Part shown: positions 12,559-57,984 of the stretch, piece by piece
How the letters are laid out: every line of letters starts with the position of its first letter
How positions within the stretch are numbered: the stretch's first letter is position 1
Assembly: GCA_014860625.1 (NCBI GenBank)
Contig: JACZJJ010000088.1
Location: 12,468 to 76,467 of the forward strand
Origin: Bacteroidales bacterium
Lineage (GTDB): Bacteria > Bacteroidota > Bacteroidia > Bacteroidales > FEN-979
DNA length: 64,000 nucleotides
Direction: 5' to 3'
Translations under genes and position numbers: made by a program
The notes under the pieces: generated by a model
Database searches by the model: none
What the model saw: the letters and a program-made list of their open reading frames with translations, nothing else
Told to the model about the DNA's origin: nothing

Positions 12559-12593
12559 TCAAAAGCCCCCGCAAACCGCCGGTCTTCTTTAAA

Positions 12594-12635
12594 ATCGTTA
12601 ATCGTTAATCGTTAATCTGCAAATCGTAAATTGAT
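12594..12635. repeat. period-7 degenerate tandem array (atcgtta x3 perfect, then atctgca/aatcgta/aattgat)
   Basis: Read directly from the sequence. It fills the convergent gap after GH31 and spans the stop codon (12612-12614) and the last 7 codons of the metallophosphoesterase gene. Confidence 0.8.
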
Positions 12636-16045: not shown

Positions 16046-16514
16046 AAGGGCGTATTTCAAATGCCCGATTGGGTACGTTGAGGTCACCGGTACCGAACAC
16101 GGAGTTCAAACTGTGACGATCAGTGACCAAAAAATGAAAAAGTGGTTTGTTCCTTTATGCCTACGCGAAGCCGTTTCTCAGCTCAAAGAGTATTTTAAGG
16201 GAGACCGGCAATTGTTCACCGCCAGGGTGGATGTCATGGGAACAGATTTTCAGATGAGGGTATGGGATGAGGTTGGCAAAATACCCTATGGAAAGACCAT
16301 AACCTACCACCAACTCGCCGAACGCATCGGCGACCCGAAAGCCTTCAGGGCAGTTGGACAGGCCGATTCGAAAAATCCAGTCTGGATTATCATTCCCTGT
16401 CATCGCGTGATAGGAAACGATGGGAAACTGGTTGGTTATGCCGGTGGCCTCTGGCGTAAAAAATGGCTGCTGGAACATGAACAGGCGTTCGCTCAAAAGG
16501 ACCTGTTTTACTAA
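16032..16514 (+). CDS. ogt: methylated-DNA--protein-cysteine methyltransferase
   Basis: 160 aa with the PCHRVIG active-site motif and a YGKTITYHQLA helix-turn-wing region. Confidence 0.9.
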   Translation: MKSIKRAYFKCPIGYVEVTGTEHGVQTVTISDQKMKKWFVPLCLREAVSQLKEYFKGDRQLFTARVDVMGTDFQMRVWDEVGKIPYGKTITYHQLAERIGDPKAFRAVGQADSKNPVWIIIPCHRVIGNDGKLVGYAGGLWRKKWLLEHEQAFAQKDLFY

Positions 16515-16547
16515 TTAAGAAAGACGAATTACGAATGAAGAATTTTT
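16513..16547. repeat. period-7 degenerate array (aattaag/aaagacg/aattacg/aatgaag/aattttt)
   Basis: Read directly from the sequence. It spans the ogt stop (16512-16514) and the ATG (16535) of the next gene. Confidence 0.6.
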
Positions 16548-19336
16548 GGAAAGTTCTGCCCTTCGGAGCACTTCTTATGCTGGTTTTTCCTGTCTTTTCC
16601 CAGGTTGAGAAACTGGTGTTTTGCGAACCGGATGTCTTTGCTCTGAAAGGAGTTGAACTGAAAAACGCCGGACTGGTAACCCTTCGGTATGAAATCCCGC
16701 TGTACACGCTGATGATGGATGACAACTATTTCGCGTCCTTCTGCTCTCCTCCCGACTATGAGGATGGACGGGTCTCCTTTGTACTCAGTGACTCTATCCG
16801 GGGAACTGTGACCTTTGATAGCAGCTTCAGGCCTGGAGTAAGGTACCGAATCCGGTTTACCAACACCAGTCAAACGGATCATCTCATCGAGAACCTGGTG
16901 CCGCTGGGGGAGGGGAGCGACAAAGTATACATCTCCGCCGAGGGGAAAAAAGAGTGGCCTGATTACCTCTGCCGATCAAAACTATACCGTCCCGGTTATG
17001 GACCCGTTGGTGTGATTCTTCCCGATAACGCCTGGCACCTGGGCTTTGCCGATATGCAGATCAACGATACTCTCTCCATTGTTGCCCTTGCCCGCCGCAC
17101 CGATCGCGACCGCGAACGAACCAAACTAGACCGCTGGGCGGTTACGTTGCAACCTGAAGGCTGGGTGGAGTACACCATATGGGCTGATATTCACACGGGC
17201 GACTGGCACGAAGGATTGAAGCTGATGTTCCAGGAGAGGTGGCTCTATGACCTGGATACATTTGATCTCGCAATGTTCAACCGTGAAGATCTTAAATGGA
17301 TGAACGATGCCTATATAATGCTCCTTCAGTTTGCCTGGGATACGAAGTTTTACGACTGGAAATCAAAGAAATACAATTTCTATTCCAGCCTGTCCGAAGT
17401 TGATTCACTCACTGGCGGATACGATATTTTTACCCTCTGGCCATCCTGGCCCCGGCTTGGTTTGGATCAGCGGAATCAGTGGGATATGTACAGGGATCTT
17501 CCTGGCGGCATCCGGGAGTTGAGAAAACAATCCGATTTTGCACATGCCATGGGAAAGAAGTACTTCATTTCCTATAACCCATGGGATGAATCAGGAAGGA
17601 AAGAGGAGCATCTGGATGGAATGGAAGAGCTCCTGAGGCAGACGGATGCCGACGGTGTGGTACTTGACACACGAGGAGCTTCGAGTTATGAGTTACAGGC
17701 TGCTGCTGACAATGTAAAACCAGGAATCATCATGTACAGCGAAGGGATGGCGGTTCCCCGCGACATGCCCGGGATTGTTTCAGGGCGCGTTCATGATGCG
17801 CTCGTTATTCCGCCTCCCGTGAACCTGAATAAATTCATAAAGCCCGACTTTGCCATCTTCAGGGTACTTCAGCTGGCCGATGACCGGCTTCATCGCGAAA
17901 TTGCCTGTGCCTTCTTTAATGGCTACGGGGTTGAGATCAACACCATGAGGCCGGGGCGACCTTCATGGATGAAAGAAGAGTATGGTTATTTAGGCCGCAC
18001 CACAAAGATTCTTCGTGAAAACAGCAGGGTATTTCACAATTACAACTACTTTGTTTTGGTGCCAACTTTAACGGATAGCATTTATGTCAATCGTTGGAAT
18101 GATGGCAATAAAACCCTCTATACAATCCTCAGTATGAAGCCTGCAGGTTTTTCAGGCGAACTGTTTGAAGTGCCTCAGATTTCGGATAATCAGCATTGTA
18201 TTGATCTCTGGAACCACCAGGAGATTGAAATAACCGGGAAAGAAGGAAAGGTTTTCATTCCCCTCGAACTTGAACCATTCAACCGGTCGTGGGTCCATAC
18301 CCGGCGGGAGGGAGTGGTTGGTTGCATAGCCCTTCTTCCGGCTCATCTTCAGGTAAGACTAACCGCTGATTCACTTTATATCTCTACTCCCCGGAATGCC
18401 GGAGACCGGATTGTGCTGACTGGCGAAAACCCTTCGTACAAGGCAAAAAGTGTAACCCTGGCATCGGAGAGTCAGGCTATTTCTTACTGGGACTATTTCC
18501 CGGAAACAACGAAGAAGATCGTGATTCAGTTATTTGATAAAGACCAACTCGCTGATGAAAGAGTTGTTTCGGTCGACAACAGCATTCCACATCTCATCTC
18601 TGCTGGTGTAAAGACACCGCATGTCAGGAAGTGTCCTGATGGCATGGTGAAAATTCCGAAGGGAACTTTCCGCTTTTATACAGCTCGTGCTCCCGAAACC
18701 CTTGAGCCGTTTATCCAACTGCCGGATTACTCTGATACCGTACAGCTGGATATGAACGGTTTTTTTATGGACCGCTATCCGGTTACGAACAAACAGTGGC
18801 TGATCTTTCTGCTTGCAACCAACTACCAGCCAATTGATTCAACAAATTATCTGGAACATTGGGTTAACGGCCAGATTCCGGAGGGCGAGGAGGATTTTCC
18901 GGTTGTCTTTATCAACCACGATGACGCAGCTGCGTATGCCAGGTGGGTGAGCAAGCGTCTCCCGACAGAGGCTGAGTGGCAGTATGCCGCCCAGGGAACA
19001 GATAGCCGGAAATATCCGTGGGGAAATGAGTTGGATAGCACCCGCTGTAATTTCAATCTGAACCATCCCACACCTGTGACTCAGTTCCCCCTGGGTGCCA
19101 GTCCGTTCGGTGTAGAGGACATGGTTGGAAATGTATGGCAGATGACGAACGATATCTACACCAATGGCAGCTATTACTTTAACGTCATCCGCGGAGGGAG
19201 TTATTATCAACCCGATTCAAGTATCTGGTACGTGACAGGAGGCCCGCTTCCTGCCGATCATCCTGAGATGCTTCTGATGATTGGCCCGGGTCTGGACAGA
19301 AATGCTACCGTGGGATTTCGGCTGGTAAAGGATTAG
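16535..19336 (+). CDS. secreted 933-aa protein: unknown ~690-aa N-terminal region fused to an FGE/SUMF1-fold (sulfatase-modifying-factor-like) domain
   Basis: Has a signal peptide. The C-terminal 240 aa carry MDRYPVTNKQW, DDAAAYARWVSKRLPTEAEWQYAA, GNVWQMTND and RGGSYY, the FGE-sulfatase fold signature. No Cys follows RGGSYY. Confidence 0.8.
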   Translation: MKNFWKVLPFGALLMLVFPVFSQVEKLVFCEPDVFALKGVELKNAGLVTLRYEIPLYTLMMDDNYFASFCSPPDYEDGRVSFVLSDSIRGTVTFDSSFRPGVRYRIRFTNTSQTDHLIENLVPLGEGSDKVYISAEGKKEWPDYLCRSKLYRPGYGPVGVILPDNAWHLGFADMQINDTLSIVALARRTDRDRERTKLDRWAVTLQPEGWVEYTIWADIHTGDWHEGLKLMFQERWLYDLDTFDLAMFNREDLKWMNDAYIMLLQFAWDTKFYDWKSKKYNFYSSLSEVDSLTGGYDIFTLWPSWPRLGLDQRNQWDMYRDLPGGIRELRKQSDFAHAMGKKYFISYNPWDESGRKEEHLDGMEELLRQTDADGVVLDTRGASSYELQAAADNVKPGIIMYSEGMAVPRDMPGIVSGRVHDALVIPPPVNLNKFIKPDFAIFRVLQLADDRLHREIACAFFNGYGVEINTMRPGRPSWMKEEYGYLGRTTKILRENSRVFHNYNYFVLVPTLTDSIYVNRWNDGNKTLYTILSMKPAGFSGELFEVPQISDNQHCIDLWNHQEIEITGKEGKVFIPLELEPFNRSWVHTRREGVVGCIALLPAHLQVRLTADSLYISTPRNAGDRIVLTGENPSYKAKSVTLASESQAISYWDYFPETTKKIVIQLFDKDQLADERVVSVDNSIPHLISAGVKTPHVRKCPDGMVKIPKGTFRFYTARAPETLEPFIQLPDYSDTVQLDMNGFFMDRYPVTNKQWLIFLLATNYQPIDSTNYLEHWVNGQIPEGEEDFPVVFINHDDAAAYARWVSKRLPTEAEWQYAAQGTDSRKYPWGNELDSTRCNFNLNHPTPVTQFPLGASPFGVEDMVGNVWQMTNDIYTNGSYYFNVIRGGSYYQPDSSIWYVTGGPLPADHPEMLLMIGPGLDRNATVGFRLVKD

Positions 19337-22982: not shown

Positions 22983-23024
22983 TAGATGTTAGATGCTAGA
23001 TACTGGATACTAGATGCTGGATGT
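22983..23024. repeat. period-7 degenerate array, 6 units (tagatgt/tagatgc/tagatac/tggatac/tagatgc/tggatgt)
   Basis: Read directly from the sequence. Intergenic, between the GH63-like stop and the DUF2961 start. Confidence 0.85.
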
Positions 23025-23025
23025 T

Positions 23026-23060
23026 TAATCCCTAATCCCTATTCCCTAATCGCTAATCCC
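23026..23060. repeat. period-7 degenerate array, 5 units (taatccc/taatccc/tattccc/taatcgc/taatccc)
   Basis: Read directly from the sequence. It spans the GH63-like stop codon (23039-23041) and encodes its last residues QGLAIRE. Confidence 0.85.
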
Positions 23061-25213
23061 TGATACTCTTCAATCAGCAGTTTCGCCATAATGGCATCCC
23101 AGATATAATTAGATGGAGAATTAAGCACCTCATTATCGGGACTGTATGACTCCCAGAAATTATGATTCTTGCTCAATTGCATAACCACGGCATCTACCAT
23201 TTTATCCGCTAATTGATGAGCCAGTGAGTCGTATCCATAGTTTTTCAGTCCGTCATATACCATGTAATCCCAGAGCAGCCATACCGGGCCGTTCCACTTG
23301 CAGCAGTAATCAACATTCGGACTGTACCACGGATCATCTGCCGAGAGGGTTGGAATGCCGTACCTTCGCCAGAATTTTGTGGTATCAGACAGGACTTTTA
23401 CCAGCCGGGCTGCTCTGTCCGGTGGCGCTGCTTCAGCCCACAAGGCAAGAAAAGCGATGATTTCCTGCCGCCTGAGATCGCGGGTCATGAAATACCAGCC
23501 ATGATCGTCCCGATTTACAGAATAATAAAATCCCGTAGAGTCATCCCACATGCGTTCGTTGACCAGTTGTGAGGTTTTATCTGCTTTCTCAAGCCAATTC
23601 CTGGATTCTTCTGTTTTGCCGAGGGCTTTTGCCATTTCTGCCAGGCTGCGTTCTTCCTTGATGACCATAAGGGTCAAATCGAGGCATTCCAGTTCGTCTG
23701 AGATGTCCTCTTTGTCAACATCCAGATATCTTTCTGCAGATACCTGAAATACCGCATTATACCAATCCCTTACATTCTCAATCAGTCCATACGGTCCCCA
23801 TTCGAACGTACCATCGCCATCCGAATCACGATTTTTGATGATCCAGTTCGTATATCTGACTCCTGAATTGTAGGCTTCTTCAAGAAATTCACGGTCTTTG
23901 CTCACGTTGTAAATTTCCAGGTTGATCCAACTGAAGAATGGCGCCGAGGTTGTCGACATCTTCTTGTGTGGATAATCCTGTAACCCCCTGGGACCGTGAC
24001 GGTAAGCGATCAGTCCATCCTCTCGCTGCTGCTCCATGAAAACCTGTTGGGATCCCTCGGCCGAATTCGGATCCATGTAGACATAGGACAGCATGCTGAG
24101 CGATTCGTGCAGCACCTGATGTCCGTGTCCCCATCCCCAGAGTGGGTTTCGGCTGAAGACGTAGAAGTTGTGTGTCGTCTTTCCAGACGGAGGGTACATC
24201 GATCCGCGCACCAGATTAAATGAACTGAGATAAACCAGCTTCTCGCCGCCTGTTTTAAACCGGATTTTAGGAACTTTTGCGAAGAGAATAAGATTGTCGT
24301 CATAGAAACTCCTGAGATGCATTTTCTTCACAGCTTCCATTTCGTTCAGTAACTGCTCAACCTCCTCATTCTGGCTCTGAACTCCGCGCAAATACCTGAG
24401 ATTTACCTGCTCTCCAGGCCTTAACCGTTCCTTGAGCTGAATTGCCGCATAATCAACTAAACCAGTATATTGTGTATTTAAATTATCCAATCTGTTGGTC
24501 GAATAATAATCCGTTTTAACCTGTGAATAAAAATCATCCAGATGCCCCCTATACCCTCCATAGGAATCGTTTGTTTGATTGGTGGTGAAGATATTCCGAA
24601 GTCGCGTTGGATACCCGTAATCCGGCTTCATGCTACTGATCAGTCGGTAAAGGCTTTCCCGGTGGTGCAGGATGTAACTCTGACGGAGGCTGTCATACCC
24701 GATTATTTCCAGCGAATCATTTCCCAGTTCGAGAATAGGGTACACCACTACCTCATGCGGGATGTTATCGGTGTTTTTCACCTCCATATCTACCAGCGCA
24801 ATCGCAGAACTGTAGACAAAAAAGGTCTCCTTTACACGGATTCCCCTGAAAGGTTCATACTCCAGGATCGCCATGTCGGGAAAAGAGAATACAACTACGG
24901 GTTTTCTAAAATACTCCCCGATGTTCCGGATCACGACTTCATCCACCTTCAAGATGCAAAACATGGAACCAGCCTGATCGGAAGAATATGTAACAGGCAT
25001 ACAATCAGAGTAATAGTTCATTTTATATGCCTTGTCGCCATACAGTCTGGAGCGCTTCATGGCAGCCGCATAAGTGGTGTACAGGGGATCATCCGCCCGG
25101 GCATCCATCCGAACATAATCCTCAACAGGCTTCAGGTTCTGCGCGTAAAGAGTACTGGGGAAGATAATACCCAGGATGACCAGGATCCTGAATAAAATGA
25201 AAAACGGTTTCAT
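23039..25213 (-). CDS. (alpha/alpha)6-barrel glycoside hydrolase-like protein, GH63/MGH1-like
   Basis: 724 aa from ATG 25213 (MKPFFILFRILVILG signal). The C-terminal region has WNGPVWLLWDYMVYDGLKNYGY and FWESYSPDN, typical of the GH63/trehalase-like clan. Confidence 0.65.
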   Translation of the reverse strand: MKPFFILFRILVILGIIFPSTLYAQNLKPVEDYVRMDARADDPLYTTYAAAMKRSRLYGDKAYKMNYYSDCMPVTYSSDQAGSMFCILKVDEVVIRNIGEYFRKPVVVFSFPDMAILEYEPFRGIRVKETFFVYSSAIALVDMEVKNTDNIPHEVVVYPILELGNDSLEIIGYDSLRQSYILHHRESLYRLISSMKPDYGYPTRLRNIFTTNQTNDSYGGYRGHLDDFYSQVKTDYYSTNRLDNLNTQYTGLVDYAAIQLKERLRPGEQVNLRYLRGVQSQNEEVEQLLNEMEAVKKMHLRSFYDDNLILFAKVPKIRFKTGGEKLVYLSSFNLVRGSMYPPSGKTTHNFYVFSRNPLWGWGHGHQVLHESLSMLSYVYMDPNSAEGSQQVFMEQQREDGLIAYRHGPRGLQDYPHKKMSTTSAPFFSWINLEIYNVSKDREFLEEAYNSGVRYTNWIIKNRDSDGDGTFEWGPYGLIENVRDWYNAVFQVSAERYLDVDKEDISDELECLDLTLMVIKEERSLAEMAKALGKTEESRNWLEKADKTSQLVNERMWDDSTGFYYSVNRDDHGWYFMTRDLRRQEIIAFLALWAEAAPPDRAARLVKVLSDTTKFWRRYGIPTLSADDPWYSPNVDYCCKWNGPVWLLWDYMVYDGLKNYGYDSLAHQLADKMVDAVVMQLSKNHNFWESYSPDNEVLNSPSNYIWDAIMAKLLIEEYQGLAIRE

Positions 25214-25261
25214 GGTGTAAAGATACGGTATATGGAGCAACCAGATTAAAAACACCTCTTT

Positions 25262-28703: not shown

Positions 28704-30580
28704 CTAATCGTTTTCTGAAATAATAATTTGGTTCTGTGTTCAGTTTCCTTAATGGTGCTCAGATAATTAGCCAGTTCTTCGAAATCACTTCTGGCAAAAC
28801 TACCAGCTATAAGTTCATACGTTCGCGTCAGAATTAACCTACCAGAGTCGTTGTTGAATCTTAGGGTATACGTCCCAAACTTGCTTGAAATCTCAATGTC
28901 GTCTTTTACAACTGGCAACCAACCCGAAGGGTACTGGTACTCTATCGTATCATTTATGGAGACTGGGTAAGGAATGTAAATTGATGCTTTTCTGGAAGAA
29001 ATTTTCTCAGGAATAGGTAGCGCTAGCGGTGTCAGCTCGGCTATTATACCATTCTGATATGGCTGGATGAAATGTGGTACATCTCCCAATACAGTGATAG
29101 TTAGTCGGGCTGTATCTCGATTGAAATGTTGGATGTTGAATGAATCGAGATGAAAATTTTTAGACGTGAATTCATCCTCCAGAATCTCAGAAAAGTTGGT
29201 GAGGTTTAAATTTGCCTCCAGCGCCAGAATTTGTTCAAATAAATACCCTTTAAGCCGAAAGTTAATTCTGGAGGTTGTTGAAAATTTTGAATCGATATGA
29301 AATGTGATTCGTCGTTGAATGCTGACATCCTTACTTAATAACCTGGGAGTATTTGTAAGATAGCTCTCTGTCCCATTGATAACCAGGCATCCACGATCGT
29401 GGATAAATGACCCCACATAGCCTGTTGGAATTTGATTATTGGTACATTCGAGCCAAAGTGTGTCTCCATGGTTTGGAACCATCAGAATGACATGATTGAA
29501 TTGTTGACCTGGTAAGTCGGTAATTAATTCAGTCCTCTTTCTACCTGAATTAATGAGGGTATAACAGGATTCTATCCCAACATTCTCAAGGATTGATCGC
29601 ATGTATAGTGTCAGCGCTTTGCAATCGCCATATTTATTGCGTGAAACATAGGCTGGCGAATGGGGCTTTAACCCTCCGATATCCAAAGCAATATTGAGAT
29701 ACCGGGTATTATCCTGCAAATAATGATAGAGTGTTGAAATCCTTTCCCTGTCATTTGTTATTCCCTCAACAAGTTGCCTGATGTGTACCTTCTCAAGTTC
29801 GGGCAATGGTTCGGTGTCCTGGAGGAGATCTGCAAAGTATTTTCCGAATTGGGCCCAACTCATTGCCTGGCCGGCAACCCCATATGTAAACTTTTGTGGT
29901 ACAACAATTACGCGAGGTACTAAGTCCCTGAATGGAGGTGAAAAGATTTCATAGGGAAGGATAGTATCATAGTTGGATGACCACTTATAGGTTATATTTC
30001 CTGTTGAAGTATCAATAACAGGCTCAGAAATTAATCTCTGAAAGATGTCCACCTTATAATTCACTGGGATATTGAGTGTCAAAAAAGCTGAAAGTGTAGG
30101 AATATCCGAATCATAAATAGGTGTCCAGTCAATAATATTTACAAACTCTTTTTGTGAATAAGTGGTTGAAAGCCTTATCCGGTAAGGAAATTTGTGATAG
30201 GCAAGAGAAAACTCTTTCCTGAAGTAATCACTATAGTAACTCCCATCATACATTTCACTAATTGTAGAAATCTCTTTCTTTCCCAGTTCCCGAATCAGAT
30301 TTCCCCTGATGTCTTCAATGGAAGCATGAAGAACTGTCAATTTGTTTAGTTTTGAGTAGGGGATTGAGAACCAGGCTAATTTTTCACCTTCGCGGTTGTT
30401 TATTTCAAACAGAATAGTAGTTTCTGTGACCAACTCATTTCGATAAACAGAATATACTGAATTCAAAGAAATTACCTTACAATTCTCCCTCGATGACCCA
30501 TAAATCATAGTGTTTGCAAACAAAAGGTATAGAAAGAAACAGGAAAAACACCAGGAACACCGTTTGATTTTCATTTTCAC
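28700..30580 (-). CDS. DUF3857/transglutaminase-like cysteine-protease-fold protein (Cys/His present)
   Basis: 626 aa with a signal peptide and the YGDCKALTLYMRSILENVGI and FNHVILMV motifs. The start is GTG 30580 or ATG 30574. Confidence 0.75.
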   Translation of the reverse strand: MKMKIKRCSWCFSCFFLYLLFANTMIYGSSRENCKVISLNSVYSVYRNELVTETTILFEINNREGEKLAWFSIPYSKLNKLTVLHASIEDIRGNLIRELGKKEISTISEMYDGSYYSDYFRKEFSLAYHKFPYRIRLSTTYSQKEFVNIIDWTPIYDSDIPTLSAFLTLNIPVNYKVDIFQRLISEPVIDTSTGNITYKWSSNYDTILPYEIFSPPFRDLVPRVIVVPQKFTYGVAGQAMSWAQFGKYFADLLQDTEPLPELEKVHIRQLVEGITNDRERISTLYHYLQDNTRYLNIALDIGGLKPHSPAYVSRNKYGDCKALTLYMRSILENVGIESCYTLINSGRKRTELITDLPGQQFNHVILMVPNHGDTLWLECTNNQIPTGYVGSFIHDRGCLVINGTESYLTNTPRLLSKDVSIQRRITFHIDSKFSTTSRINFRLKGYLFEQILALEANLNLTNFSEILEDEFTSKNFHLDSFNIQHFNRDTARLTITVLGDVPHFIQPYQNGIIAELTPLALPIPEKISSRKASIYIPYPVSINDTIEYQYPSGWLPVVKDDIEISSKFGTYTLRFNNDSGRLILTRTYELIAGSFARSDFEELANYLSTIKETEHRTKLLFQKTIR

Positions 30581-33500
30581 TGGGTTACAGGAATAATTAC
30601 AGACTTAATATTATATTTTTCAGGTACCGCGTCAAAATCAACTAAAAACTTAGTTACAAAACCCTCCCTGGACAGGAATTTCCCGTTTTCAACACTTTTC
30701 TCATCTGCAGGGGAGGAGTTCCAAACGGAAAGGGTATCTGAAGATCCGGCCAATCCCTCGAGATCGATTAGGTATTTACTGCCTTTTAAGTTGGCATCGA
30801 TAATCCGCATTCCTTCTGCCGGAGAGCCGGGAAGAGGGGATGTTACCTTGGGGAGCACGGAAATACCGCCGTTGTACTTCACGACGACCGTTGTGGTTCC
30901 ATCAATGATGAAGTTCATCTGCAGTGTGATAAACCGGGATGTTGTGAAGGATGCGAAAGGATATTCCTGCTCATTCAGCATCACCTGTCCGATTTTTGTT
31001 CCGGGAGGTAATGCCAGCATCATGTTTACTTTAATAGGCTGAATGCCCGAACGATAAAACTGCCATGCGTAAGCCGTTGCATCTCGGTTGAAGGAAACAT
31101 TGACTGCCTGATCTCCTATGCGGATGTGTTTCACGGTGATGTGATCCCAATCAGCCGGAAGTCGGGGAGAGATGTTCAGTGTTCTGTTTGGCGCATCGAC
31201 GTCAATTCCAAGCATCCCTTCAATGATGGGTTGCAATACCATGGTTTCCGACCAGCACTGGTGCGGACAAACACCGGAGGGCTGGTATTCAGATCCGTTT
31301 AGCACCTCCTCAACATACCCCAACCCCCAATTTCCGTATCCATTCAGGTTGTTCATGATATGCGAAAAACCCTGTACATAATTCCCGTAGCGGTATTCGG
31401 CCAGGGCAGTCCAGCCCGTAAAGAGAGGCCAGACACTGCCGTAGTGATATCCGGTCGGCTTAAACATCGGGCTCTCTTCTCCGATAATCCTTGTCCCCCA
31501 GTTAGTTGAGAAACTGTTTGATGCATACTTGTCAAGAAGAAATCGCATCAAAAATTGATTTGTAAGACCGAAGTACGCCGGAACAGCCGGAAGAATGGTG
31601 GCGTCCGATCTCTGGGAGCGGTTTTTATTGAGACCATACGCGTAAAACTGCTTCGATGAGTTCCAAAATGTCTGATCGATCAGGTTTCTGAGAAGTTTCG
31701 CCTCCTGTTTGTACTGGGTTGTTTCGCTGACTCCAATAGCTTCAGCTATGGTTCCGGCTGCTTCAAGCGCAGCTACCCAGCATCCGGTCAGGTAAAACGA
31801 GGAGTGAGAGCCAAACAGTTTTCCTCCTTCCACCCAGCCATGCCCCACATTGGTATTCTCAATCAGGTGGTCCTGATCGGTATCGGTGGAGAAACAGAAG
31901 TCGATGGCTTTCTTAATTCCTTTCCAATTGGACCGGATGAAGGCTGTGTCGCCAGATTTCGAAAAATATTCCCCCGCGAGAAGGAGAAAAAGGGGGGTGG
32001 CATCCGAGGCGTCATAGTGGATGACTCCTGAGGTAGTTGCCTCATGCAGGATTTTTCCATTCAGATCCTGGTACTTCAGGTAAAACTCCAGGTTCTTTCT
32101 GACCTTTTCAACGTCGCCGTAATCGAGAATGGCAAGTCCGCTCCATTCACCGTCGCGACCGAAATACCATGCATACCCGGGCCTTCCGCTCACCTTCTGC
32201 TCTCCGTCCCACCCCCGGCGGGTTGTTCCATATCCCGCTACCAGGGCGGAACCCATCCCGGGAGTGGTAACAAAAAAGCGGTCGGTTCCCAGAAGAGCCC
32301 ATTTGTATCCGTCATTGAAGTTGTTATCCGGAGTAGTGACCATGAGGCTCCTTGTGAAAAGATCCTCCACATGCAACTGAGACCTTCTAAAAACCTCCCG
32401 GGGTTTCCTGATTGCCTGATCAAAACTGGCTGTTGCCTCTTCCATTCCATTCATGCCCGATGCAAAAGCCACATCAAGCGACTCGCCTGTATGAAGGGAA
32501 TAGCGCATTCCGGCATCCACGATAAAACCATCTCCCTGCCTTGCTTCGTGTGTCAGAGGAATTTTATTCCCTCCCACCATCACGGCCATATCCCCTGATT
32601 TGTCTCCGAAACAGAATGCGTGGTAATCCTTGTCCCATCCATAGCAGATTGAACTGATGGAGCCGGCCGCATAAGGCCACATCAACCGAAGGTTTGTGCT
32701 GAACCGTATCTCAAGATTGATCGTCTCATCTCCATACCAGGTGTAGTGAACTACACCAAAGGGGAGGGTTGGATCTGCTGCAACAACTTCATCCAGGATG
32801 CCTTGATCCAGTTGATAATGACGGATGAAGCCATCGGGGCGGATTTCGATCTCAGGTTTCAGATCGCTTAGCCAATTGATACTGTCAGATGCCAGACGCC
32901 GTTGCCCCGTAGCTCCGCTCTTTGCCATGACAAGGATGCCGGTTTCGAAATCCCGGATCGCCATAAAGGGATGGGTCCAGATCTCTTCGATGCCTCCTTT
33001 TTCCTGACACATAATCAGAATTCTCTCTCCGGCGGCTTCGCAATAGGCATTTGTTGCCGGATGAACAGGGAAAGCCAGCGGATCAGGTTTTATATTCCAT
33101 GGGATGGCTTCCGGTAATGCATCAAAAAGAACATCGCGGTTTTGAACCTTTTCCTCACATTCTACCACTGTGGTAGGAGAGTAATCCCAGTAAAACCTGG
33201 GATGGTTGTCCAGTTTCCCTGTCAGATAACCGAGGAGGTTTTTTGAAAAGGTTTCGAGGTGAAGCCGTTGATCGTTCGGTAAGGCAAATTGTGTATAGGC
33301 ACCCACTGCCATCAACTTACCTTTCCCAACCTCATACTCTATGATCACTTTCGAACTGTCACGGAAGAAAATGTAATCCCAGTCGATGGCTACAACGTTC
33401 CCCTGTGCGGGAATAGTATCACCAAAGAAACCGTTGACCCTTACCGTCATATCATGGGTTGGCTTGCAGATGTAAGCTCCTCCATGTAATCCGGAAAAGA

Positions 33501-34128
33501 GGGGATGCTCCCTGAAAGCATGAAAACCGAGTTTTCTGCCGTAACCTTCATCAACTGATGCCTTGCGCTTCACCGAGGGAACCGTAGTCTCTACACCCAG
33601 CAGATTGATATAGGGAAACGCATCGAGAGTCAACAACACACTGCCGCCATTTTTAAGGTACTCCAGTATCTGCCTGATCACTTTCTGGTCAGCCTCGTCG
33701 TCTGTAAACGCTGAACTGTCGGATCTGTGAAACCAAACCACCGATGCCTCCTGAAACTGTTTCGGATATTTCCTCAGCTCCTGAAACGTGCTGTATTTCA
33801 ATGAATAATCATCAAGAGTCCGAACAAATTCCATGGCAGACACAAGCTCTGTATCTGCAAAAGCTAAAGGTTCTTCACCCACCATTAAAATCACTCTCAT
33901 CTCACCGATACCCTCTTCCTTCTTCCCTCGTCCCTCTTCCTTCGTCCTTCTTCCCTCATCCTTCTTCCTTCTTCCCTCATCCTTCGTCCCTCTTCCCTCG
34001 TCCTTCGTTAAACGAATCGTATGTCTTCTCGTATCCGCTCCTTTTATTCCCTGCGAAATCCCTTCAGTTGGACAAAATGTCACGAAAACGAAGAGTATAA
34101 GAGCTGCTAATAGTTTGTTCCGATTCAT
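30577..34128 (-). CDS. large secreted protein: charged heptad linker + GATase1/ThuA-like region + amylo-alpha-1,6-glucosidase (GDE_C)-like (alpha/alpha)6 domain
   Basis: 1183 aa with a signal peptide. GYAWYFGRDGEWSGLAIL...YQDLNGKILHE..DATPLFLLLAGEY resembles the glycogen-debranching GDE_C family. ATGA overlap with the upstream HAD gene. Confidence 0.7.
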   Translation of the reverse strand: MNRNKLLAALILFVFVTFCPTEGISQGIKGADTRRHTIRLTKDEGRGTKDEGRRKKDEGRRTKEEGRGKKEEGIGEMRVILMVGEEPLAFADTELVSAMEFVRTLDDYSLKYSTFQELRKYPKQFQEASVVWFHRSDSSAFTDDEADQKVIRQILEYLKNGGSVLLTLDAFPYINLLGVETTVPSVKRKASVDEGYGRKLGFHAFREHPLFSGLHGGAYICKPTHDMTVRVNGFFGDTIPAQGNVVAIDWDYIFFRDSSKVIIEYEVGKGKLMAVGAYTQFALPNDQRLHLETFSKNLLGYLTGKLDNHPRFYWDYSPTTVVECEEKVQNRDVLFDALPEAIPWNIKPDPLAFPVHPATNAYCEAAGERILIMCQEKGGIEEIWTHPFMAIRDFETGILVMAKSGATGQRRLASDSINWLSDLKPEIEIRPDGFIRHYQLDQGILDEVVAADPTLPFGVVHYTWYGDETINLEIRFSTNLRLMWPYAAGSISSICYGWDKDYHAFCFGDKSGDMAVMVGGNKIPLTHEARQGDGFIVDAGMRYSLHTGESLDVAFASGMNGMEEATASFDQAIRKPREVFRRSQLHVEDLFTRSLMVTTPDNNFNDGYKWALLGTDRFFVTTPGMGSALVAGYGTTRRGWDGEQKVSGRPGYAWYFGRDGEWSGLAILDYGDVEKVRKNLEFYLKYQDLNGKILHEATTSGVIHYDASDATPLFLLLAGEYFSKSGDTAFIRSNWKGIKKAIDFCFSTDTDQDHLIENTNVGHGWVEGGKLFGSHSSFYLTGCWVAALEAAGTIAEAIGVSETTQYKQEAKLLRNLIDQTFWNSSKQFYAYGLNKNRSQRSDATILPAVPAYFGLTNQFLMRFLLDKYASNSFSTNWGTRIIGEESPMFKPTGYHYGSVWPLFTGWTALAEYRYGNYVQGFSHIMNNLNGYGNWGLGYVEEVLNGSEYQPSGVCPHQCWSETMVLQPIIEGMLGIDVDAPNRTLNISPRLPADWDHITVKHIRIGDQAVNVSFNRDATAYAWQFYRSGIQPIKVNMMLALPPGTKIGQVMLNEQEYPFASFTTSRFITLQMNFIIDGTTTVVVKYNGGISVLPKVTSPLPGSPAEGMRIIDANLKGSKYLIDLEGLAGSSDTLSVWNSSPADEKSVENGKFLSREGFVTKFLVDFDAVPEKYNIKSVIIPVTQ
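33910..34008. repeat. 21-bp in-frame tandem repeat (about 4.7 copies) encoding TKDEGRG/TKDEGRR/KKDEGRR/TKEEGRG/KKEEG
   Basis: Read directly from the DNA (ccctcttccttcgtccttctt... units) and from the protein, residues 41-73 of the 1183-aa ORF. Confidence 0.9.
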
Positions 34129-37754: not shown

Positions 37755-37756
37755 AT

Positions 37757-37800
37757 TATCCAGCGTCCAGTGATCCAGTCATCTAGTTATCAGTTGACGT
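37757..37800. repeat. period-7/8 degenerate array (tatccagc/gtccagt/gatccagt/catctagt/tatcagt/tgacgt..)
   Basis: Read directly from the sequence. It fills the aat-start to aminotransferase-stop gap and spans the stop at 37790-37792. Confidence 0.7.
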
Positions 37801-38977
37801 AGTCCAACACTTCAATTAACCTCGAACACGCCTCTTCAATCTCCTCTTTGGTGATCGTAAGCGGAGGAGCTATGCGAAAGGTTGCAGGCTTAAACAGGTA
37901 CCAGTCAATGATGATTCCGTGGTTCAATGCTGCCTCCATAAAAGGTTGTCGTTTATCGTGATCCACCATATCCAATCCGATCGCCAAACCTCTCCTCCGA
38001 TATGACGCTATTGCCGGGTGTTTGCAAACTTTCTCCTCAAATTGACGACCTTTCTCTTCTACTTCACTTAGCAGACCATCAGCAAGTAAAACCTCTATTC
38101 CGGCCAACGCAGCCGCACAACTTACGGGATGCCCGCCAAAGGTGGTGATGTGACCAAGTTCAGGATTAAAGGCCAGCGAATCCATGACCTGCTTTGGAGC
38201 GATAAAAGCTCCCAGTGGCATTCCGGCACCCAGTGCTTTCGCCAGGACCAGGACATCCGGAACAAAACCATACTGTTCAAAAGAAAACAAACTCCCGGTA
38301 CGGCCAAATCCCATCTGAACATCATCGATCACCAGCAGCGTCCCTGTTTCAGCACACCGCTCTCTGAGTCGTTGAAGGAAATTAGCTTCCGGAAGGATCA
38401 GTCCGGCTTCTGCCTGGATGGTCTCTGCAACCACGCAAGCTGTTTTCTCCGTTATTTTATCAAGGTCATCAAAATGGTTGAACTTCAGGTGCCGGATGTC
38501 GGGGATCAAAGGACGAAAGGCACTTTTCATCATTTCGTTTCCAAGAATGGAGAGTGCTCCCTGAGTGGATCCGTGGTAGGCATCTTTAAACGCAATGATC
38601 TCCTGCCGGCCGGTATATCGTTTTGCCAGTTTCATAGCCCCCTCTATGGCTTCACTGCCTGAATTGACAAAGTAGACCGAATCGAGGGAAGGGGGTAAAA
38701 GGTCAGTTAGCCGCTTGGCGAGTTTTACCTGGGGAGATTGAATAAACTCCCCGTAAACATTGAGATACAAATACTTATCAAGTTGTTCATCGATTGCTGA
38801 GAGAACCATCGGATGCCGGTGACCGATGTTGCTGACTGAAATTCCGGAAACAAGATCAAGGAAACGATTCCCATCGCGATCTGTCAGCCAAACCCCTTCT
38901 GCATGTACAATATCCAATGCCATGGGGGTAAACGAGGGTAATCCCAGATGCCTGTAAAACAACTCCCTGTCAGTCAT
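37790..38977 (-). CDS. class-III pyridoxal-phosphate aminotransferase (acetylornithine/ornithine aminotransferase-like)
   Basis: 395 aa with SGSEAIEGAMKLA, a DDVQMGFGRTG motif and a LAKALGAGMP Lys region. Confidence 0.9.
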   Translation of the reverse strand: MTDRELFYRHLGLPSFTPMALDIVHAEGVWLTDRDGNRFLDLVSGISVSNIGHRHPMVLSAIDEQLDKYLYLNVYGEFIQSPQVKLAKRLTDLLPPSLDSVYFVNSGSEAIEGAMKLAKRYTGRQEIIAFKDAYHGSTQGALSILGNEMMKSAFRPLIPDIRHLKFNHFDDLDKITEKTACVVAETIQAEAGLILPEANFLQRLRERCAETGTLLVIDDVQMGFGRTGSLFSFEQYGFVPDVLVLAKALGAGMPLGAFIAPKQVMDSLAFNPELGHITTFGGHPVSCAAALAGIEVLLADGLLSEVEEKGRQFEEKVCKHPAIASYRRRGLAIGLDMVDHDKRQPFMEAALNHGIIIDWYLFKPATFRIAPPLTITKEEIEEACSRLIEVLDYVN

Positions 38978-38984
38978 GGGTTAA

Positions 38985-39044
38985 TGTGATAATGTGCTGA
39001 TGTGTTGATGTGCTGATGTGTTCATGTGATAATGTGCTGATGTT
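38985..39044. repeat. period-8 degenerate array, 7.5 units (tgtgataa/tgtgctga/tgtgttga/tgtgctga/tgtgttca/tgtgataa/tgtgctga/tgtt)
   Basis: Read directly from the sequence. It begins 8 nt from the aminotransferase start codon in a divergent intergenic region. Confidence 0.85.
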
Positions 39045-39045
39045 A

Positions 39046-39102
39046 CGAAATTACAAAAACAGATGAATTGTTCTGATTTTCATTATCGATTTTGTAATTT
39101 CG
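39046..39102. repeat. perfect 13-bp inverted repeat (cgaaattacaaaa ... ttttgtaatttcg) with 31-nt spacer
   Basis: Checked by hand: arms at 39046-39058 and 39090-39102. Confidence 0.85.
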
Positions 39103-39106
39103 CTTT

Positions 39107-39138
39107 TTCACTAGTTCACTATTTCACCATTTGTTTAT
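39107..39138. repeat. period-8 degenerate array (ttcactag/ttcactat/ttcaccat/ttgtttat) running into the SDR start codon
   Basis: Read directly from the sequence. ATG 39137 is inside the last unit. Confidence 0.7.
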
Positions 39139-39943
39139 GAAAGACAAAGTCGTTGTCATCACAGGAGCTGCATCCGGTATTGGAAAGGCCCTCGCCTTTG
39201 AATGCGCCAGTAGGGGAGCCAAGCTTTCACTGGCTGACCGCAACAGCCAGTCCCTTGAAATCATCAGGGATGAGTTAATGAAAAGAGGCACGGAAGTGAT
39301 TGCGACGGAAACCGATGTGACAAAAGAAGATGATTGCAAGCGATTTATATCTAATACGATAAGCCACTTCAACAGGATTGATGTACTGATCAACAATGCA
39401 GGGATCTCCATGCGCGCATTGTTTGAGGAGGTAGACCTTGATGTCCTCCGTCGGGTCATGGATGTCAATTTCTGGGGTGCGGTTTACTGCACCAAATATG
39501 CATTGCCCAAACTGTTGAAAACCAATGGTTCGGTTACCGGTGTCTCCTCTATTGCAGGGTATAAGGGGTTGCCCGGACGAACTGGCTACTCTGCATCAAA
39601 ATTTGCTCTTCAGGGCTTCCTGGAGGTGATCCGGATAGAAAATATGAAGAAGGGTTTGCATGTGTTGGTCGCATGTCCCGGTTTTACCAGTTCAAACATC
39701 CGAAATGCTGCACTTGCAAAGGATGGCAGCAATCAGGGAGAATCTCCGCGCGACGAAGCAAAGATGATGATGCCTGAAGAGGTTGCCCGACAGATCTGTA
39801 ATGCTATCGAAAAGAGGAAACACAGGCTCACCATGACATCCCAGGGAAAGATGACTGTTCTCCTGAACAAATTCTTCCCGAAGTTCATGGATAAAATGGT
39901 TTACAATCACATGGCGAAGGAGCCGGATTCTCCCTTTAAGTAA
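39137..39943 (+). CDS. short-chain dehydrogenase/reductase (classical SDR)
   Basis: 268 aa from ATG 39137 (MKDKVVVITGAASGIGKA), with YSASKFAL catalytic Y-x3-K. Confidence 0.9.
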   Translation: MKDKVVVITGAASGIGKALAFECASRGAKLSLADRNSQSLEIIRDELMKRGTEVIATETDVTKEDDCKRFISNTISHFNRIDVLINNAGISMRALFEEVDLDVLRRVMDVNFWGAVYCTKYALPKLLKTNGSVTGVSSIAGYKGLPGRTGYSASKFALQGFLEVIRIENMKKGLHVLVACPGFTSSNIRNAALAKDGSNQGESPRDEAKMMMPEEVARQICNAIEKRKHRLTMTSQGKMTVLLNKFFPKFMDKMVYNHMAKEPDSPFK

Positions 39944-39945
39944 AG

Positions 39946-39973
39946 TACGAGTAACAATTTACGATTAACAATT
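39946..39973. repeat. 14-bp direct repeat x2 (tacgagtaacaatt / tacgattaacaatt)
   Basis: Read directly from the sequence. It fills the convergent SDR/xerD gap. It shares the 12-mer caatttacgatt with the reverse complement of the 12594-12635 array. Confidence 0.75.
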
Positions 39974-39978
39974 GCAAA

Positions 39979-56371: not shown

Positions 56372-57514
56372 TTAAGCAGACAATAGTTGATGATTCTGAG
56401 AGGAATTCAGCAGATTCTGAATGGGACGGAATTCATGCCGAATGATCTCCCACTTTTCGGGATACTGATCAAAAAGTTGAATAATCCGTTTTTGATGCTT
56501 GCGCAATGCATCTGTAATTGCCGGGGCTGAAATCGGGGTAGGGAACTCTTTTCCCACGTTCGCGCTCGTTAAATTGTCTTTTCGCTGTTTGATGCCTGAT
56601 GCCGCAAGTTCAAGTCGGTCAAGTAACAGGTGGGTTTTAATCATCCGCTGGGGAAGCCCGTCAATGACCTGGTCTGAAATCTTTTGTTGCACAGGATCCG
56701 GAAATCTGATGTGGTAATCAGCCAACAGTATCTGAGAAAATTGAGCAGGGGAGGACAACGCCCCAGCAAATTCAAGTGCGTCGTTTATGATTTGCTCCAA
56801 CTGAGACAATTCTCCTGTAAACATTTTCAATTTAATCTTGGCTGAATCTGTCAGGGAAGCCCTAGTTCCATGCTTTTCAGCATATCTGGAAAGAAAATAT
56901 TGGGCAAGTGACAAAATTCCCTCCCTGACTTTTTGTCCCTGCTGTTCCAACTCTTCTTTCAACTGATCACGCTCCCGTACTATGTGACGAATTTGTTCGT
57001 CAAAGGTAGCTGTCAGTTGATTCTGCGCATCGGAAGTATGAAACAGGGTATTGATTGAATGGGAGAGAAGAAACCCTACCATGTTCTTGTGTTGAGCAGA
57101 AAAAGGTTCACTCACTTTGTCTAAAAGAAAATTACTCAGATTGTCATTGAAATAAATGAAGAAAAGATCGGATGAAAATGAGCCAGAAATTGAATATAAA
57201 ATCAATAATACGCTGTTTTTCAGCTCACTAAATATAGTTAATTGAACTTTATCTTTATTAATAATTTCAAATGGTAACTGGTTTTTTTGAAACCAATGGT
57301 AAGGTTGAGACGAATTCCCCAAGTCAGAAAACACAGAAGAGCCGGCCTCTAACTTGATCTGATCAATCCTGTAATCCTTCTCATCCTTTTTTAGAAGGAA
57401 GCCCGATGATTGTGTGTTATTGTGCTGATAATGAACAAGAACTACTTGCTCTATTCCAGGAATTAATCCGGGAATCAGTGATAAAACACGTAAGGAAAGG
57501 ACCTCTTTTGACAC
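56372..57514 (-). CDS. hypothetical protein (380 aa), possible regulator
   Basis: Long ORF, AT-rich in its 5' half, with a central coiled-coil (RERDQLKEELEQQGQKVREG). LAQYFLSRYAEKHGTRASLTDSAKIKL is reminiscent of the lid helix pair of sigma-54 activator AAA+ domains. I see no Walker A/B and no clear HTH. It ends 23 nt upstream of the SDR gene. Confidence 0.6.
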   Translation of the reverse strand: MSKEVLSLRVLSLIPGLIPGIEQVVLVHYQHNNTQSSGFLLKKDEKDYRIDQIKLEAGSSVFSDLGNSSQPYHWFQKNQLPFEIINKDKVQLTIFSELKNSVLLILYSISGSFSSDLFFIYFNDNLSNFLLDKVSEPFSAQHKNMVGFLLSHSINTLFHTSDAQNQLTATFDEQIRHIVRERDQLKEELEQQGQKVREGILSLAQYFLSRYAEKHGTRASLTDSAKIKLKMFTGELSQLEQIINDALEFAGALSSPAQFSQILLADYHIRFPDPVQQKISDQVIDGLPQRMIKTHLLLDRLELAASGIKQRKDNLTSANVGKEFPTPISAPAITDALRKHQKRIIQLFDQYPEKWEIIRHEFRPIQNLLNSSQNHQLLSA

Positions 57515-57984
57515 AACCTATCCAATTAATTAAGCAAATATACGGCATAATTACTGCTTAAGCAAATTTAAGCTTAATTAAGTGCTTAACTTAACTTAAT
57601 TGGTGGTTAAGTAGAATCATTTAAGTTGGATATTTTGGTTAAATAATTTGTTTCGATTATAAATGCAGCCTAGTTTTATCCATTAAAAAAATAAAGCATA
57701 CTTAAATGTAATCTCAATGAAAAACTTAAATAATAACACAGAACAAGGTGAATATTACCGCATCATGGAAAAGCGAATTAAGTATTATGCTGAGAAGTAT
57801 GATCCGCATACAATTGTTTATGATCATCAACCGTCGCCGGTAAGTATTGAAACGAAAAATGGAGACCCAAAGAAGCATGGGATAGCCTTTTTTCGGTCCG
57901 TTTTTATGAATTTTTTTTAGCCCTGTTTGATTTTCGATTGGGTTTATTGTACTTTTACACGATTAACCCTCTAATCAGTTTCAA

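Follow-up and report, generated by a model that had tools for sequence, protein, structure and literature searches.

A divergent Bacteroidales spacer as two probable back-to-back promoters with leaders lengthened by 8-nucleotide repeats

We analysed the 159-bp spacer (38978-39136) between an aminotransferase gene and a divergently oriented short-chain dehydrogenase/reductase (SDR) gene in a Bacteroidales bacterium (GenBank assembly GCA_014860625.1, contig JACZJJ010000088.1, positions 12,468 to 76,467). The whole stretch of 64,000 nucleotides (nt) is called the window here, and all positions count from its first letter. The spacer holds two arrays of 8-nt repeats on either side of a 13-bp inverted repeat. 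In our view it probably consists of two back-to-back promoters and two leaders that were lengthened by slippage-type 8-nt repeats, which belong to a class found throughout the lineage. For annotation, this would mean that an odd-looking spacer has an ordinary logic, two conserved promoters plus two repeat-lengthened leaders, and it yields transcription start positions that can be tested. From left to right, the locus is made up as follows:

37790-38977, - strand: class-III (acetylornithine/ornithine-type) aminotransferase gene, ATG at 38977-38975 (PF00202, E = 1.9e-97)
38978-39041, - strand: predicted aminotransferase leader, 64 nt (from the repeat array and the box-to-ATG distance)
39046-39053, - strand: putative aminotransferase -7 promoter box TAATTTCG, inside the left inverted-repeat arm 39046-39058 (from conservation in orthologues)
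39054-39094, no strand: 41-bp region between the two -7 boxes, the overlapping upstream regions (-18 to -33) of the predicted divergent promoters, with the 31-bp spacer of the inverted repeat
39095-39102, + strand: putative SDR -7 promoter box TAATTTCG, inside the right inverted-repeat arm 39090-39102 (from the same comparison of orthologues)
39107-39136, + strand: predicted SDR leader, 30 nt, ttcacNNN units (from the repeat array)
39137-39943, + strand: SDR gene of the PRK06181 type, ATG at 39137 (PF00106, E = 1.3e-50)

Anatomy of the spacer and its putative promoter boxes

The initial annotation had described this spacer from its letters, and its coordinates and sequences are correct to the base, as are the flanking genes and their start positions (38977 and 39137). 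The left array (38985-39044), re-read from the sequence, consists of 7.5 tgtgNNNa units (tgtgataa, tgtgctga, tgtgttga, tgtgctga, tgtgttca, tgtgataa, tgtgctga, then tgtt), and its register continues as far as the aminotransferase start codon. The 19-nt segment tgtgataatgtgctgatgt is present in it twice (38985-39003 and 39025-39043), offset by 40 nt. The arms of the inverted repeat, CGAAATTACAAAA (39046-39058) and TTTTGTAATTTCG (39090-39102), are 100% complementary, with 31 nt between them and 44 bp from centre to centre. The right array (39107-39138) reads ttcactag, ttcactat, ttcaccat, ttgtttat and continues into the ATG at 39137.

Tandem Repeats Finder (TRF) gives a period of 8 for both arrays. 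It places the left one at 38984-39043 (7.5 copies, 80% matches, score 71) and the right one at 39097-39132 (4.5 copies, 78% matches, score 44), where the first unit, ATTTCGCT, overlaps the SDR -7 box and is followed by TTTTCACT and further units. Like long simple-sequence repeats, both have at least three head-to-tail units of 5-11 nt, above what shuffled sequences give. The 159 bp match themselves at a lag of 8 nt with a fraction of 0.63 (0.79 in the left array, 0.69 in the right) and at other lags that are not multiples of 8 with fractions of 0.06-0.45. Folded as single-stranded DNA, the inverted repeat reaches -11.9 kcal/mol (z = -4.3), a value that none of 200 shuffles attains. That the two arrays are reverse complements of each other and make up one large palindrome is not supported, their consensus units being 4 edits apart in either orientation. 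A known RNA family can also be set aside: the only Rfam match in the spacer (E <= 1) is a chance one of a microRNA hairpin model to the inverted repeat (20 bits, gathering threshold 88), and the whole window holds no Rfam family at gathering thresholds and no tRNA.

In Bacteroidota the -7 element of promoters has the form TAnnTTTG (refined to TAHHTTTG) with its G at -5, the -33 motif TTTG is weak or undetectable, and leaders are usually about 23 nt long and lack Shine-Dalgarno sequences (PMC7366714, PMC6847099). Each arm of the inverted repeat carries an outward-pointing TAATTTCG, one per strand (39046-39053 on the - strand and 39095-39102 on the + strand), which fits five of the six specified positions of TAnnTTTG; the mismatch is the C at -6. 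A scan of one genome per species gave us 77 related loci, labelled mostly Bacteroidales, Prolixibacteraceae or Draconibacterium, with a best amino-acid identity of 87%. The SDR gene adjoins the aminotransferase gene divergently in about 70 of the 77, and we extracted 69 orthologous spacers, the window's own included. Of these 69 spacers, 64 have a TAnnTT[TC]G box in both orientations and all but 3 have one on the aminotransferase side, while chance would give about 0.1 matches per spacer and orientation (our own estimate from base composition, not a tool's output). The box at the orthologous position varies among relatives and may be TATCTTTG, TAAATTTG, TACTTTTG, TATATTCG or TAATTTCG, so that both TTTG and TTCG forms are found.

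Boxes of this type are concentrated upstream of genes in our data set as a whole. TAnnTTTG occurs 3.9 times per kb in the 50 nt upstream of genes and 0.48 times per kb overall, an about 8-fold difference, and the upstream density is still 3.45 per kb when this spacer is excluded. In the window, 17 of the 49 called genes have a box within 80 nt upstream. The 59-bp core of the spacer (39045-39103) is identical to that of its relative L002 at 56 of 59 positions (95%), whereas the third codon positions of both flanking genes are 52-56% identical (about 54%) in the same comparison. Strong constraint therefore acts on the middle of the spacer. Judged from sequence, the arms of the inverted repeat are a conserved pair of divergent promoters of the Bacteroidota primary-sigma type. 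The initial annotation had held that almost no unique sequence is left for conventional promoters. This has to be given up, since the arms themselves carry -7 boxes that most orthologous spacers have retained on both sides, within a core that has hardly changed.

The predicted promoters resemble published sigma-ABfr promoters (PMC7366714, PMC6847099) in their 8-bp box of the right form and ATG distance on both strands, in the conservation of the box in orthologues, in its enrichment upstream of the lineage's genes and in the lack of a Shine-Dalgarno sequence. The sigma-ABfr -7 element usually lies 15-30 nt from the ATG; in most relatives the box lies 13-26 nt from its ATG, and in the window the arrays have lengthened this distance. 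The predicted promoters are unlike the published ones in the C at -6 of both boxes, in a -33 motif that appears weak or absent, and in their arrangement: they stand back to back with 41 bp between the boxes and share 13 bp of identical sequence. Sigma-70 promoters were considered as well, and the two weak 9/12 matches that we found (0.7 expected) are not meaningful for this phylum. In many species both promoters use the TAnnTTCG form (L001-L076 spacers), which elsewhere upstream of genes occurs at 0.61 per kb, compared to 3.45 per kb for TTTG. This form may mark promoters that are deliberately weak or co-regulated.

As to the flanking genes, the aminotransferase has an argD-like NCBIfam match that stays under the equivalog cut-offs, and its orthologues align from residue 1. 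The SDR protein scores 321 bits against NCBIfam NF004825 (cut-off 215).

Predicted leader arrays and the repeats of the lineage

With the G of each box set at -5, the published register, transcription of the aminotransferase gene would start near 39041 (- strand) and that of the SDR gene near 39107 (+ strand). Each array sits between a -7 box and its ATG, outside the coding sequence and outside the spacing between promoter elements. By their position, the arrays should therefore be transcribed as 5' leaders. In mRNA sense the left leader is approximately CACAUNAN x 7.5. Both arrays are G-poor in this sense, with one CAC in every 8 nt. Each predicted leader has a minimum free energy of 0 kcal/mol, shuffles fold equally poorly, and the array stays unpaired when 30 nt of coding sequence are folded along with the leader. 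The leaders are thus predicted to be unstructured because of their G-poor composition.

We also considered a leader peptide. The aminotransferase leader contains, in mRNA sense, a 14-codon open reading frame (ORF) with a single AUG; the L002 array has no AUG, so the frame is put down to chance. Its AUG lies in the left-array unit 39017-39024 (CACAUGAAC in - strand sense) in a context that resembles the true start CCCAUGAC, and the frame, which is probably incidental, ends 3 nt before the aminotransferase ATG.

The distance from box to ATG varies with the arrays. On the aminotransferase side it is 68 nt in the window, 52 nt in L002 and 68 nt in L072; most relatives have 13-26 nt. For the SDR gene it is about 16-20 nt and rises to 58-140 nt in lineages with a leader array. 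At least one array is found in 29 of the 69 orthologous spacers, and the median spacer length is 157 nt with arrays and 91 nt without. The arrays in these spacers number 39, of which 19 lie in a leader and 18 between the promoter boxes.

An alignment of the closest relatives shows that copy number has changed at this locus between species, as it does in long simple-sequence repeats. The left ATGTGNTG family has about 8 copies in the window, 6 in L002, 8 in L072 and 3 in L001. The right family, (A/T)TTCACC with a ATTTCACC-type unit, ranges from about 2 copies in L035 up to about 9 in L002. The closest relatives thus share the position and the unit family of the arrays and differ in copy number. 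The unit families are kept only among the 4-6 closest relatives, and other orthologous spacers carry unrelated units. In relatives without expansion a two-unit "proto-repeat", ATTTCGCN-ATTTCACC, is widespread. The right array starts on the 3' part of the -7 box and, together with the widespread proto-repeat, this is what one would expect if slippage was seeded on a chance duplication. In the left array a perfect 20-mer recurs at the 40-nt offset and the stretch scores 91 at period 24, above its score at period 8, which points to a recent duplication of multi-unit blocks.

The spacer is one case of a much wider pattern. With TRF we found 10 arrays of period 5-12 in the window, compared to 1.39 ± 1.2 in 100 dinucleotide shuffles; 6 of them score at least 40 (0.09 expected; the top shuffle score was 48), and 6 lie in intergenic DNA (0.29 expected, with a maximum of 2 in 200 shuffles). 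The initial annotation had spoken of five other loci with arrays, and these indeed exist (12592-12631, 16508-16544, 22983-23061 with two arrays, 37758-37791, 39946-39973 and 57530-57601). For a larger sample we joined the window and the 77 related loci. These 914 kb, much of which surrounds one orthologous neighbourhood, contain 215 arrays of period 5-12. Intergenic DNA makes up 12% of the bases, and 160 of the 215 arrays are intergenic or at a gene boundary. The density is 1.58 arrays per kb in intergenic DNA and 0.066 per kb in coding DNA, and the 146 intergenic arrays compare to 7.9 ± 2.8 after shuffling. That arrays at boundaries and in intergenic DNA are strongly in excess of shuffled intergenic sequence, as the initial annotation had proposed, is therefore true of the window and of the 77 related loci. 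Both the intergenic bias and the excess across the lineage are properties of long simple-sequence repeats.

Two periods dominate, 7 (122 arrays) and 8 (54 arrays), while no other period between 5 and 12 is represented by more than 10. The units themselves are diverse: 160 non-coding arrays have 113 distinct canonical units, and every array in the window has its own. This signature is unusually clean: a fixed period combined with a nearly arbitrary unit argues for a mechanism that depends on length and not on sequence. The density of arrays is approximately 0.93 per kb in divergent, 1.14 in tandem and 4.86 in convergent spacers. We rejected the idea that arrays hug gene boundaries, since their proximity to start codons is about that of random placement and an excess of abutting arrays, about 2-fold, exists at stop codons only. 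The units are not a dispersed regulon motif either, as the patterns of this spacer occur nowhere else in the 64 kb, save for one match with 1 mismatch at chance level.

From these observations we propose the following history. Duplication of 8-nt units, and of 24- or 40-nt blocks, would have lengthened the leaders from an ancestral 10-20 nt or so to about 64 and 30 nt. Slipped-strand mispairing is the likely source of this change and of the 7- and 8-nt arrays throughout the intergenic DNA of this Prolixibacteraceae-like lineage. Such arrays would survive only in unconstrained sequence, that is, in leaders, between promoters and in 3' spacers, and would be purged from coding DNA and from promoter boxes. 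A longer, G-poor leader should be compatible with translation initiation in Bacteroidota, which is independent of Shine-Dalgarno sequences and sensitive to structure, and the change was probably close to neutral. A mutational process specific to this genome was one of three roles put forward by the initial annotation. It fits best of the three, except that the process appears to be specific to the lineage rather than to the genome.

Competing explanations and known repeat systems

Several observations do not sit easily with the explanation by promoters and slippage. Both -7 boxes have a C at -6, where the T is nearly invariant, and elsewhere the enrichment of the TTCG form upstream of genes is only 2.6-fold. 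The -33 motif of the SDR promoter is weak (TCTG at 39072-39075, separated from the -7 box by 19 nt), and for the aminotransferase no match to TTTG is better than 2 of 4. Both transcription starts are predictions from the published register. In mRNA sense C outnumbers G in 35 leader arrays against 12, which is a weak hint of an orientation preference and close to the background of array-free leaders (279 against 181). The ATGTGNTG and TCACCA families persist between species in which synonymous sites are near saturation. This persistence needs either concerted evolution or selection on the unit, so that neutrality may not be strict; it leaves some room for selection, for example for unstructured leaders, although nothing requires it. 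Copy number does not differ among assemblies of the same species, so ongoing slippage was not directly observed, in a comparison of low power: the assemblies are near-clonal (compared flanks 99.9-100% identical) and come from sister species, the window's own species being represented by one assembly. Independent assemblies from different samples carry identical spacers, 4 of them from the L002 species and 5 from the L001 species, where two contigs cover only the aminotransferase-side part. When metagenomes were scanned with a 26-mer of the core, the source assembly of L002 was the sole match. Finally, genes at the related loci were called by a simple longest-ORF heuristic, which makes the counts per spacer class approximate, and many of the sampled loci are orthologous, so their arrays are not all independent.

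One could also argue that the arrays are selected RNA elements, with the G-poor 8-mers of the leaders (CACAUNAN, UUCACNAN) forming an unstructured platform on which ribosomal protein S1, a cold-shock protein or an RRM-type protein sets the rate of translation. The arrays coincide with the predicted leaders, whose minimum free energy is 0, CAC recurs every 8 nt in both, C outnumbers G, and the unit families have been kept across species with saturated synonymous sites. Leader structure does tune translation in Bacteroidota (PMC6847099), and a like role has been suggested for TAACTGA repeats that sit just ahead of start codons without a ribosome-binding site (PMC4679880). The low structure, however, is a matter of composition, as shuffles fold equally poorly, and the orientation bias is near that of array-free leaders. 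Nearly half of the arrays in the orthologous spacers (18 of 39) lie between the promoter boxes and so form no part of a leader, convergent 3' spacers have the highest density, placement relative to start codons is about random within the spacer, units differ widely, and most orthologues manage with leaders of about 10-20 nt. We consider this explanation unlikely. The same holds for a broader version, in which a duplication process of Prolixibacteraceae-like Bacteroidales, selective for lengths of 7-8 nt, supplies products that are used at transcript boundaries, as selected, unstructured G-poor leader modules for initiation without Shine-Dalgarno sequences (perhaps bound by S1 or another RNA-binding protein) and as hairpins made of reverse-complementary array pairs after stop codons; we would give it an outside chance.

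The 13-bp inverted repeat might instead be mainly a palindromic operator for a dimeric regulator of both genes, with the arrays as auxiliary direct-repeat sites. Its perfect arms extend past the 8-bp box, the core is unusually conserved, and the TTCG form, which departs from the consensus and is rare elsewhere, is common to both promoters. Regulators can bind heptad arrays, as is reported for TTTTGAT at the ctxAB promoter (bioRxiv 10.1101/2021.05.14.444153). Yet beyond the window and L002 it is the boxes that are kept, and the 5 bases past the box are not kept as an inverted repeat. At 44 bp from centre to centre the arms are far apart for one dimer, and there is no regulator gene nearby. In an operator or iteron-type array one would look for shared units; here they are kept in the 4-6 closest relatives, change between other orthologues and recur nowhere else in the window, and the window's arrays lie downstream of the -7 boxes. 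We therefore regard an operator as quite improbable. Binding of proteins to the arrays, a role that the initial annotation had suggested, is likewise not supported: there are 113 units in 160 arrays, the units differ among orthologous spacers without recurring in the 64 kb, and arrays are denser at 3' ends. Phased DNA bending was suggested along with it. The helical repeat of DNA is about 10.5 bp, with which a 7-8-bp period does not keep phase, so planar bending is not expected; on this general ground the role is not supported.

Even less probable, in our judgement, is that the arrays are contingency repeats that act as a rheostat, where gain or loss of units tunes or switches expression, comparable to the hmw1A heptamer repeat of Haemophilus influenzae. 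It is true that copy number at the same site differs between species and that a heptamer repeat in a 5' untranslated region is documented to set expression (PMC12721329). The arrays here are only 78-80% pure, and they lie downstream of the -7 boxes in non-coding DNA, neither between promoter elements nor in a reading frame, so that a change in copy number shifts neither. They are flanked by housekeeping-type enzymes, are identical within the two sister species (4 and 5 assemblies, two of the five contigs partial; the near-clonal strains give this comparison low power), and have counterparts at 3' ends, where no switch is possible. The slippage-prone expression switches of the initial annotation are not supported for these reasons. 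The known hmw1A repeat, (ATCTTTC)n, is alike in having a unit of about 7 nt within a transcribed 5' untranslated region between promoter and start codon (PMC12721329). The hmw repeats are pure and phase-variable and form a long hairpin with a G-rich partner that is cleaved by RNase III (PMC12721329). In contrast, the arrays here are degenerate, have no pairing partner of the kind this mechanism needs (the minimum free energy of the leaders is 0 kcal/mol), stand next to housekeeping-type genes and show no polymorphism between near-clonal assemblies.

An origin of the repeats in faulty assembly or in a decayed mobile element is very improbable. The window does come from a metagenome-assembled genome. 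Arrays of 60 and 36 bp are short relative to typical sequencing reads, and assemblies made independently from different samples agree on every base of the homologous arrays. Neither terminal inverted repeats nor target duplications are present, and every array has its own unit.

Heptamer-scale intergenic repeats are already known from other phyla, and the arrays described here are not a new kind of element. As summarised in PMC4679880 and PMC4692102, Mrazek et al. 2007 described intergenic repeats with units of 5-11 nt that are dominated by heptamers and attributed them to polymerase slippage. In Xanthomonas, repeats occupy the same gene intervals in related species while their length and sequence vary (PMC4679880, PMC4692102). 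Known heptamers are the cyanobacterial STRR and GGGGA(T/C)T repeats, the GGGAATC of Xanthomonas and the TAACTGA of Beggiatoaceae (PMC4679880, PMC4692102), the last of which is also found in a few Bacteroidetes and often lies directly upstream of start codons without a ribosome-binding site (PMC4679880). Our arrays share with the long simple-sequence repeats of Mrazek et al. head-to-tail units of 7-8 nt, an intergenic bias, a sporadic phylogenetic distribution, variation at the same locus and the proposed origin by slippage. They differ from that description in their occurrence in Prolixibacteraceae-like Bacteroidales, in octamers that are nearly half as common as heptamers, and in a nearly unique unit per array. 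The single-unit heptamer systems (STRR, GGGGA(T/C)T, GGGAATC, TAACTGA) are likewise intergenic, often upstream of a start or just after a stop, and sometimes occur as inverted pairs, but they reuse one or a few units across a genome. The units here are specific to their locus: neither unit of the spacer recurs in the 64 kb, and the 160 arrays hold 113 units. By inspection the units contain no runs of G, and G-quadruplex potential is not apparent. In open-access text we found no paper that describes such arrays for Prolixibacteraceae.

With these repeats, a Bacteroidales lineage joins the scattered prokaryotes that are rich in 7-nt, and here also 8-nt, intergenic tandem repeats. The lineage could be a useful system to ask why some bacteria favour slippage at the heptamer scale. 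Another question it could help to answer is whether repeats are tolerated or exploited in leaders that have no Shine-Dalgarno sequence.

Individual arrays at other loci

Repeats also fill the outer spacers of the gene pair, both of which are 35 bp long and nearly all repeat. The spacer from the aminotransferase stop to the Leu/Phe-tRNA-protein transferase start (37755-37789) holds ATCCAGTG x 4.4, and the one between the convergent stops of SDR and XerD (39944-39978) holds TACGAGTAACAATT x 2. Relatives have other units at these positions, for example GAATATC, GATACCG and AATCGTA.

A 106-bp spacer that separates two - strand genes holds two neighbouring arrays of period 7 whose units are unrelated, TAGATGC x 5.9 (22983-23023) and TAATCCC x 5.1 (23026-23061); the latter array overlaps the stop codon of ORF 23039-25255. 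An AATCGTT heptamer array lies at a convergent gene end (12592-12631), and a TTACGAA heptamer array lies upstream of, and overlaps, the start of ORF 16535-19336 (16508-16544). The clade's most recurrent units are the related AATTACG and AAATCGT, with 8-9 loci each.

In the convergent spacers of relatives, paired arrays are often reverse complements of each other (e.g., ATTTCAG x 5 ... CTGAAAT x 5). Examples of inverted arrays are L005 7950-8063, L047 4768-4944, L023 4939-5020 and L024 4965-5068. An inverted relationship exists in 6 of 45 pairs of neighbouring arrays, compared to 1.7% of random pairs. In such a convergent spacer the unit that comes after one gene also comes after the other, each time in the sense of that gene, and read-through transcription could yield a long hairpin made of repeats. 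Reverse-complementary convergent arrays may act as bidirectional terminators.

One repeat lies inside a gene. On the - strand, ORF 30577-34128 contains a coding tandem repeat of 21 nt x 4.7 (33911-34008), which TRF also reports as period 7 x 13.3. It encodes TKDEGRG-type heptapeptides, which in the 1183-aa protein come just after a hydrophobic N-terminus like that of a signal peptide. The repeat resembles a heptamer array that has survived within a gene, as three units keep the reading frame.

The repeats at 57530-57601 are of a different kind. They lie in an AT-rich spacer of 902 bp (57083-57984, 38% GC) and consist of a 28-bp x 2.1 repeat together with TTAAGC-type decamer repeats, unlike the 7- and 8-nt arrays.

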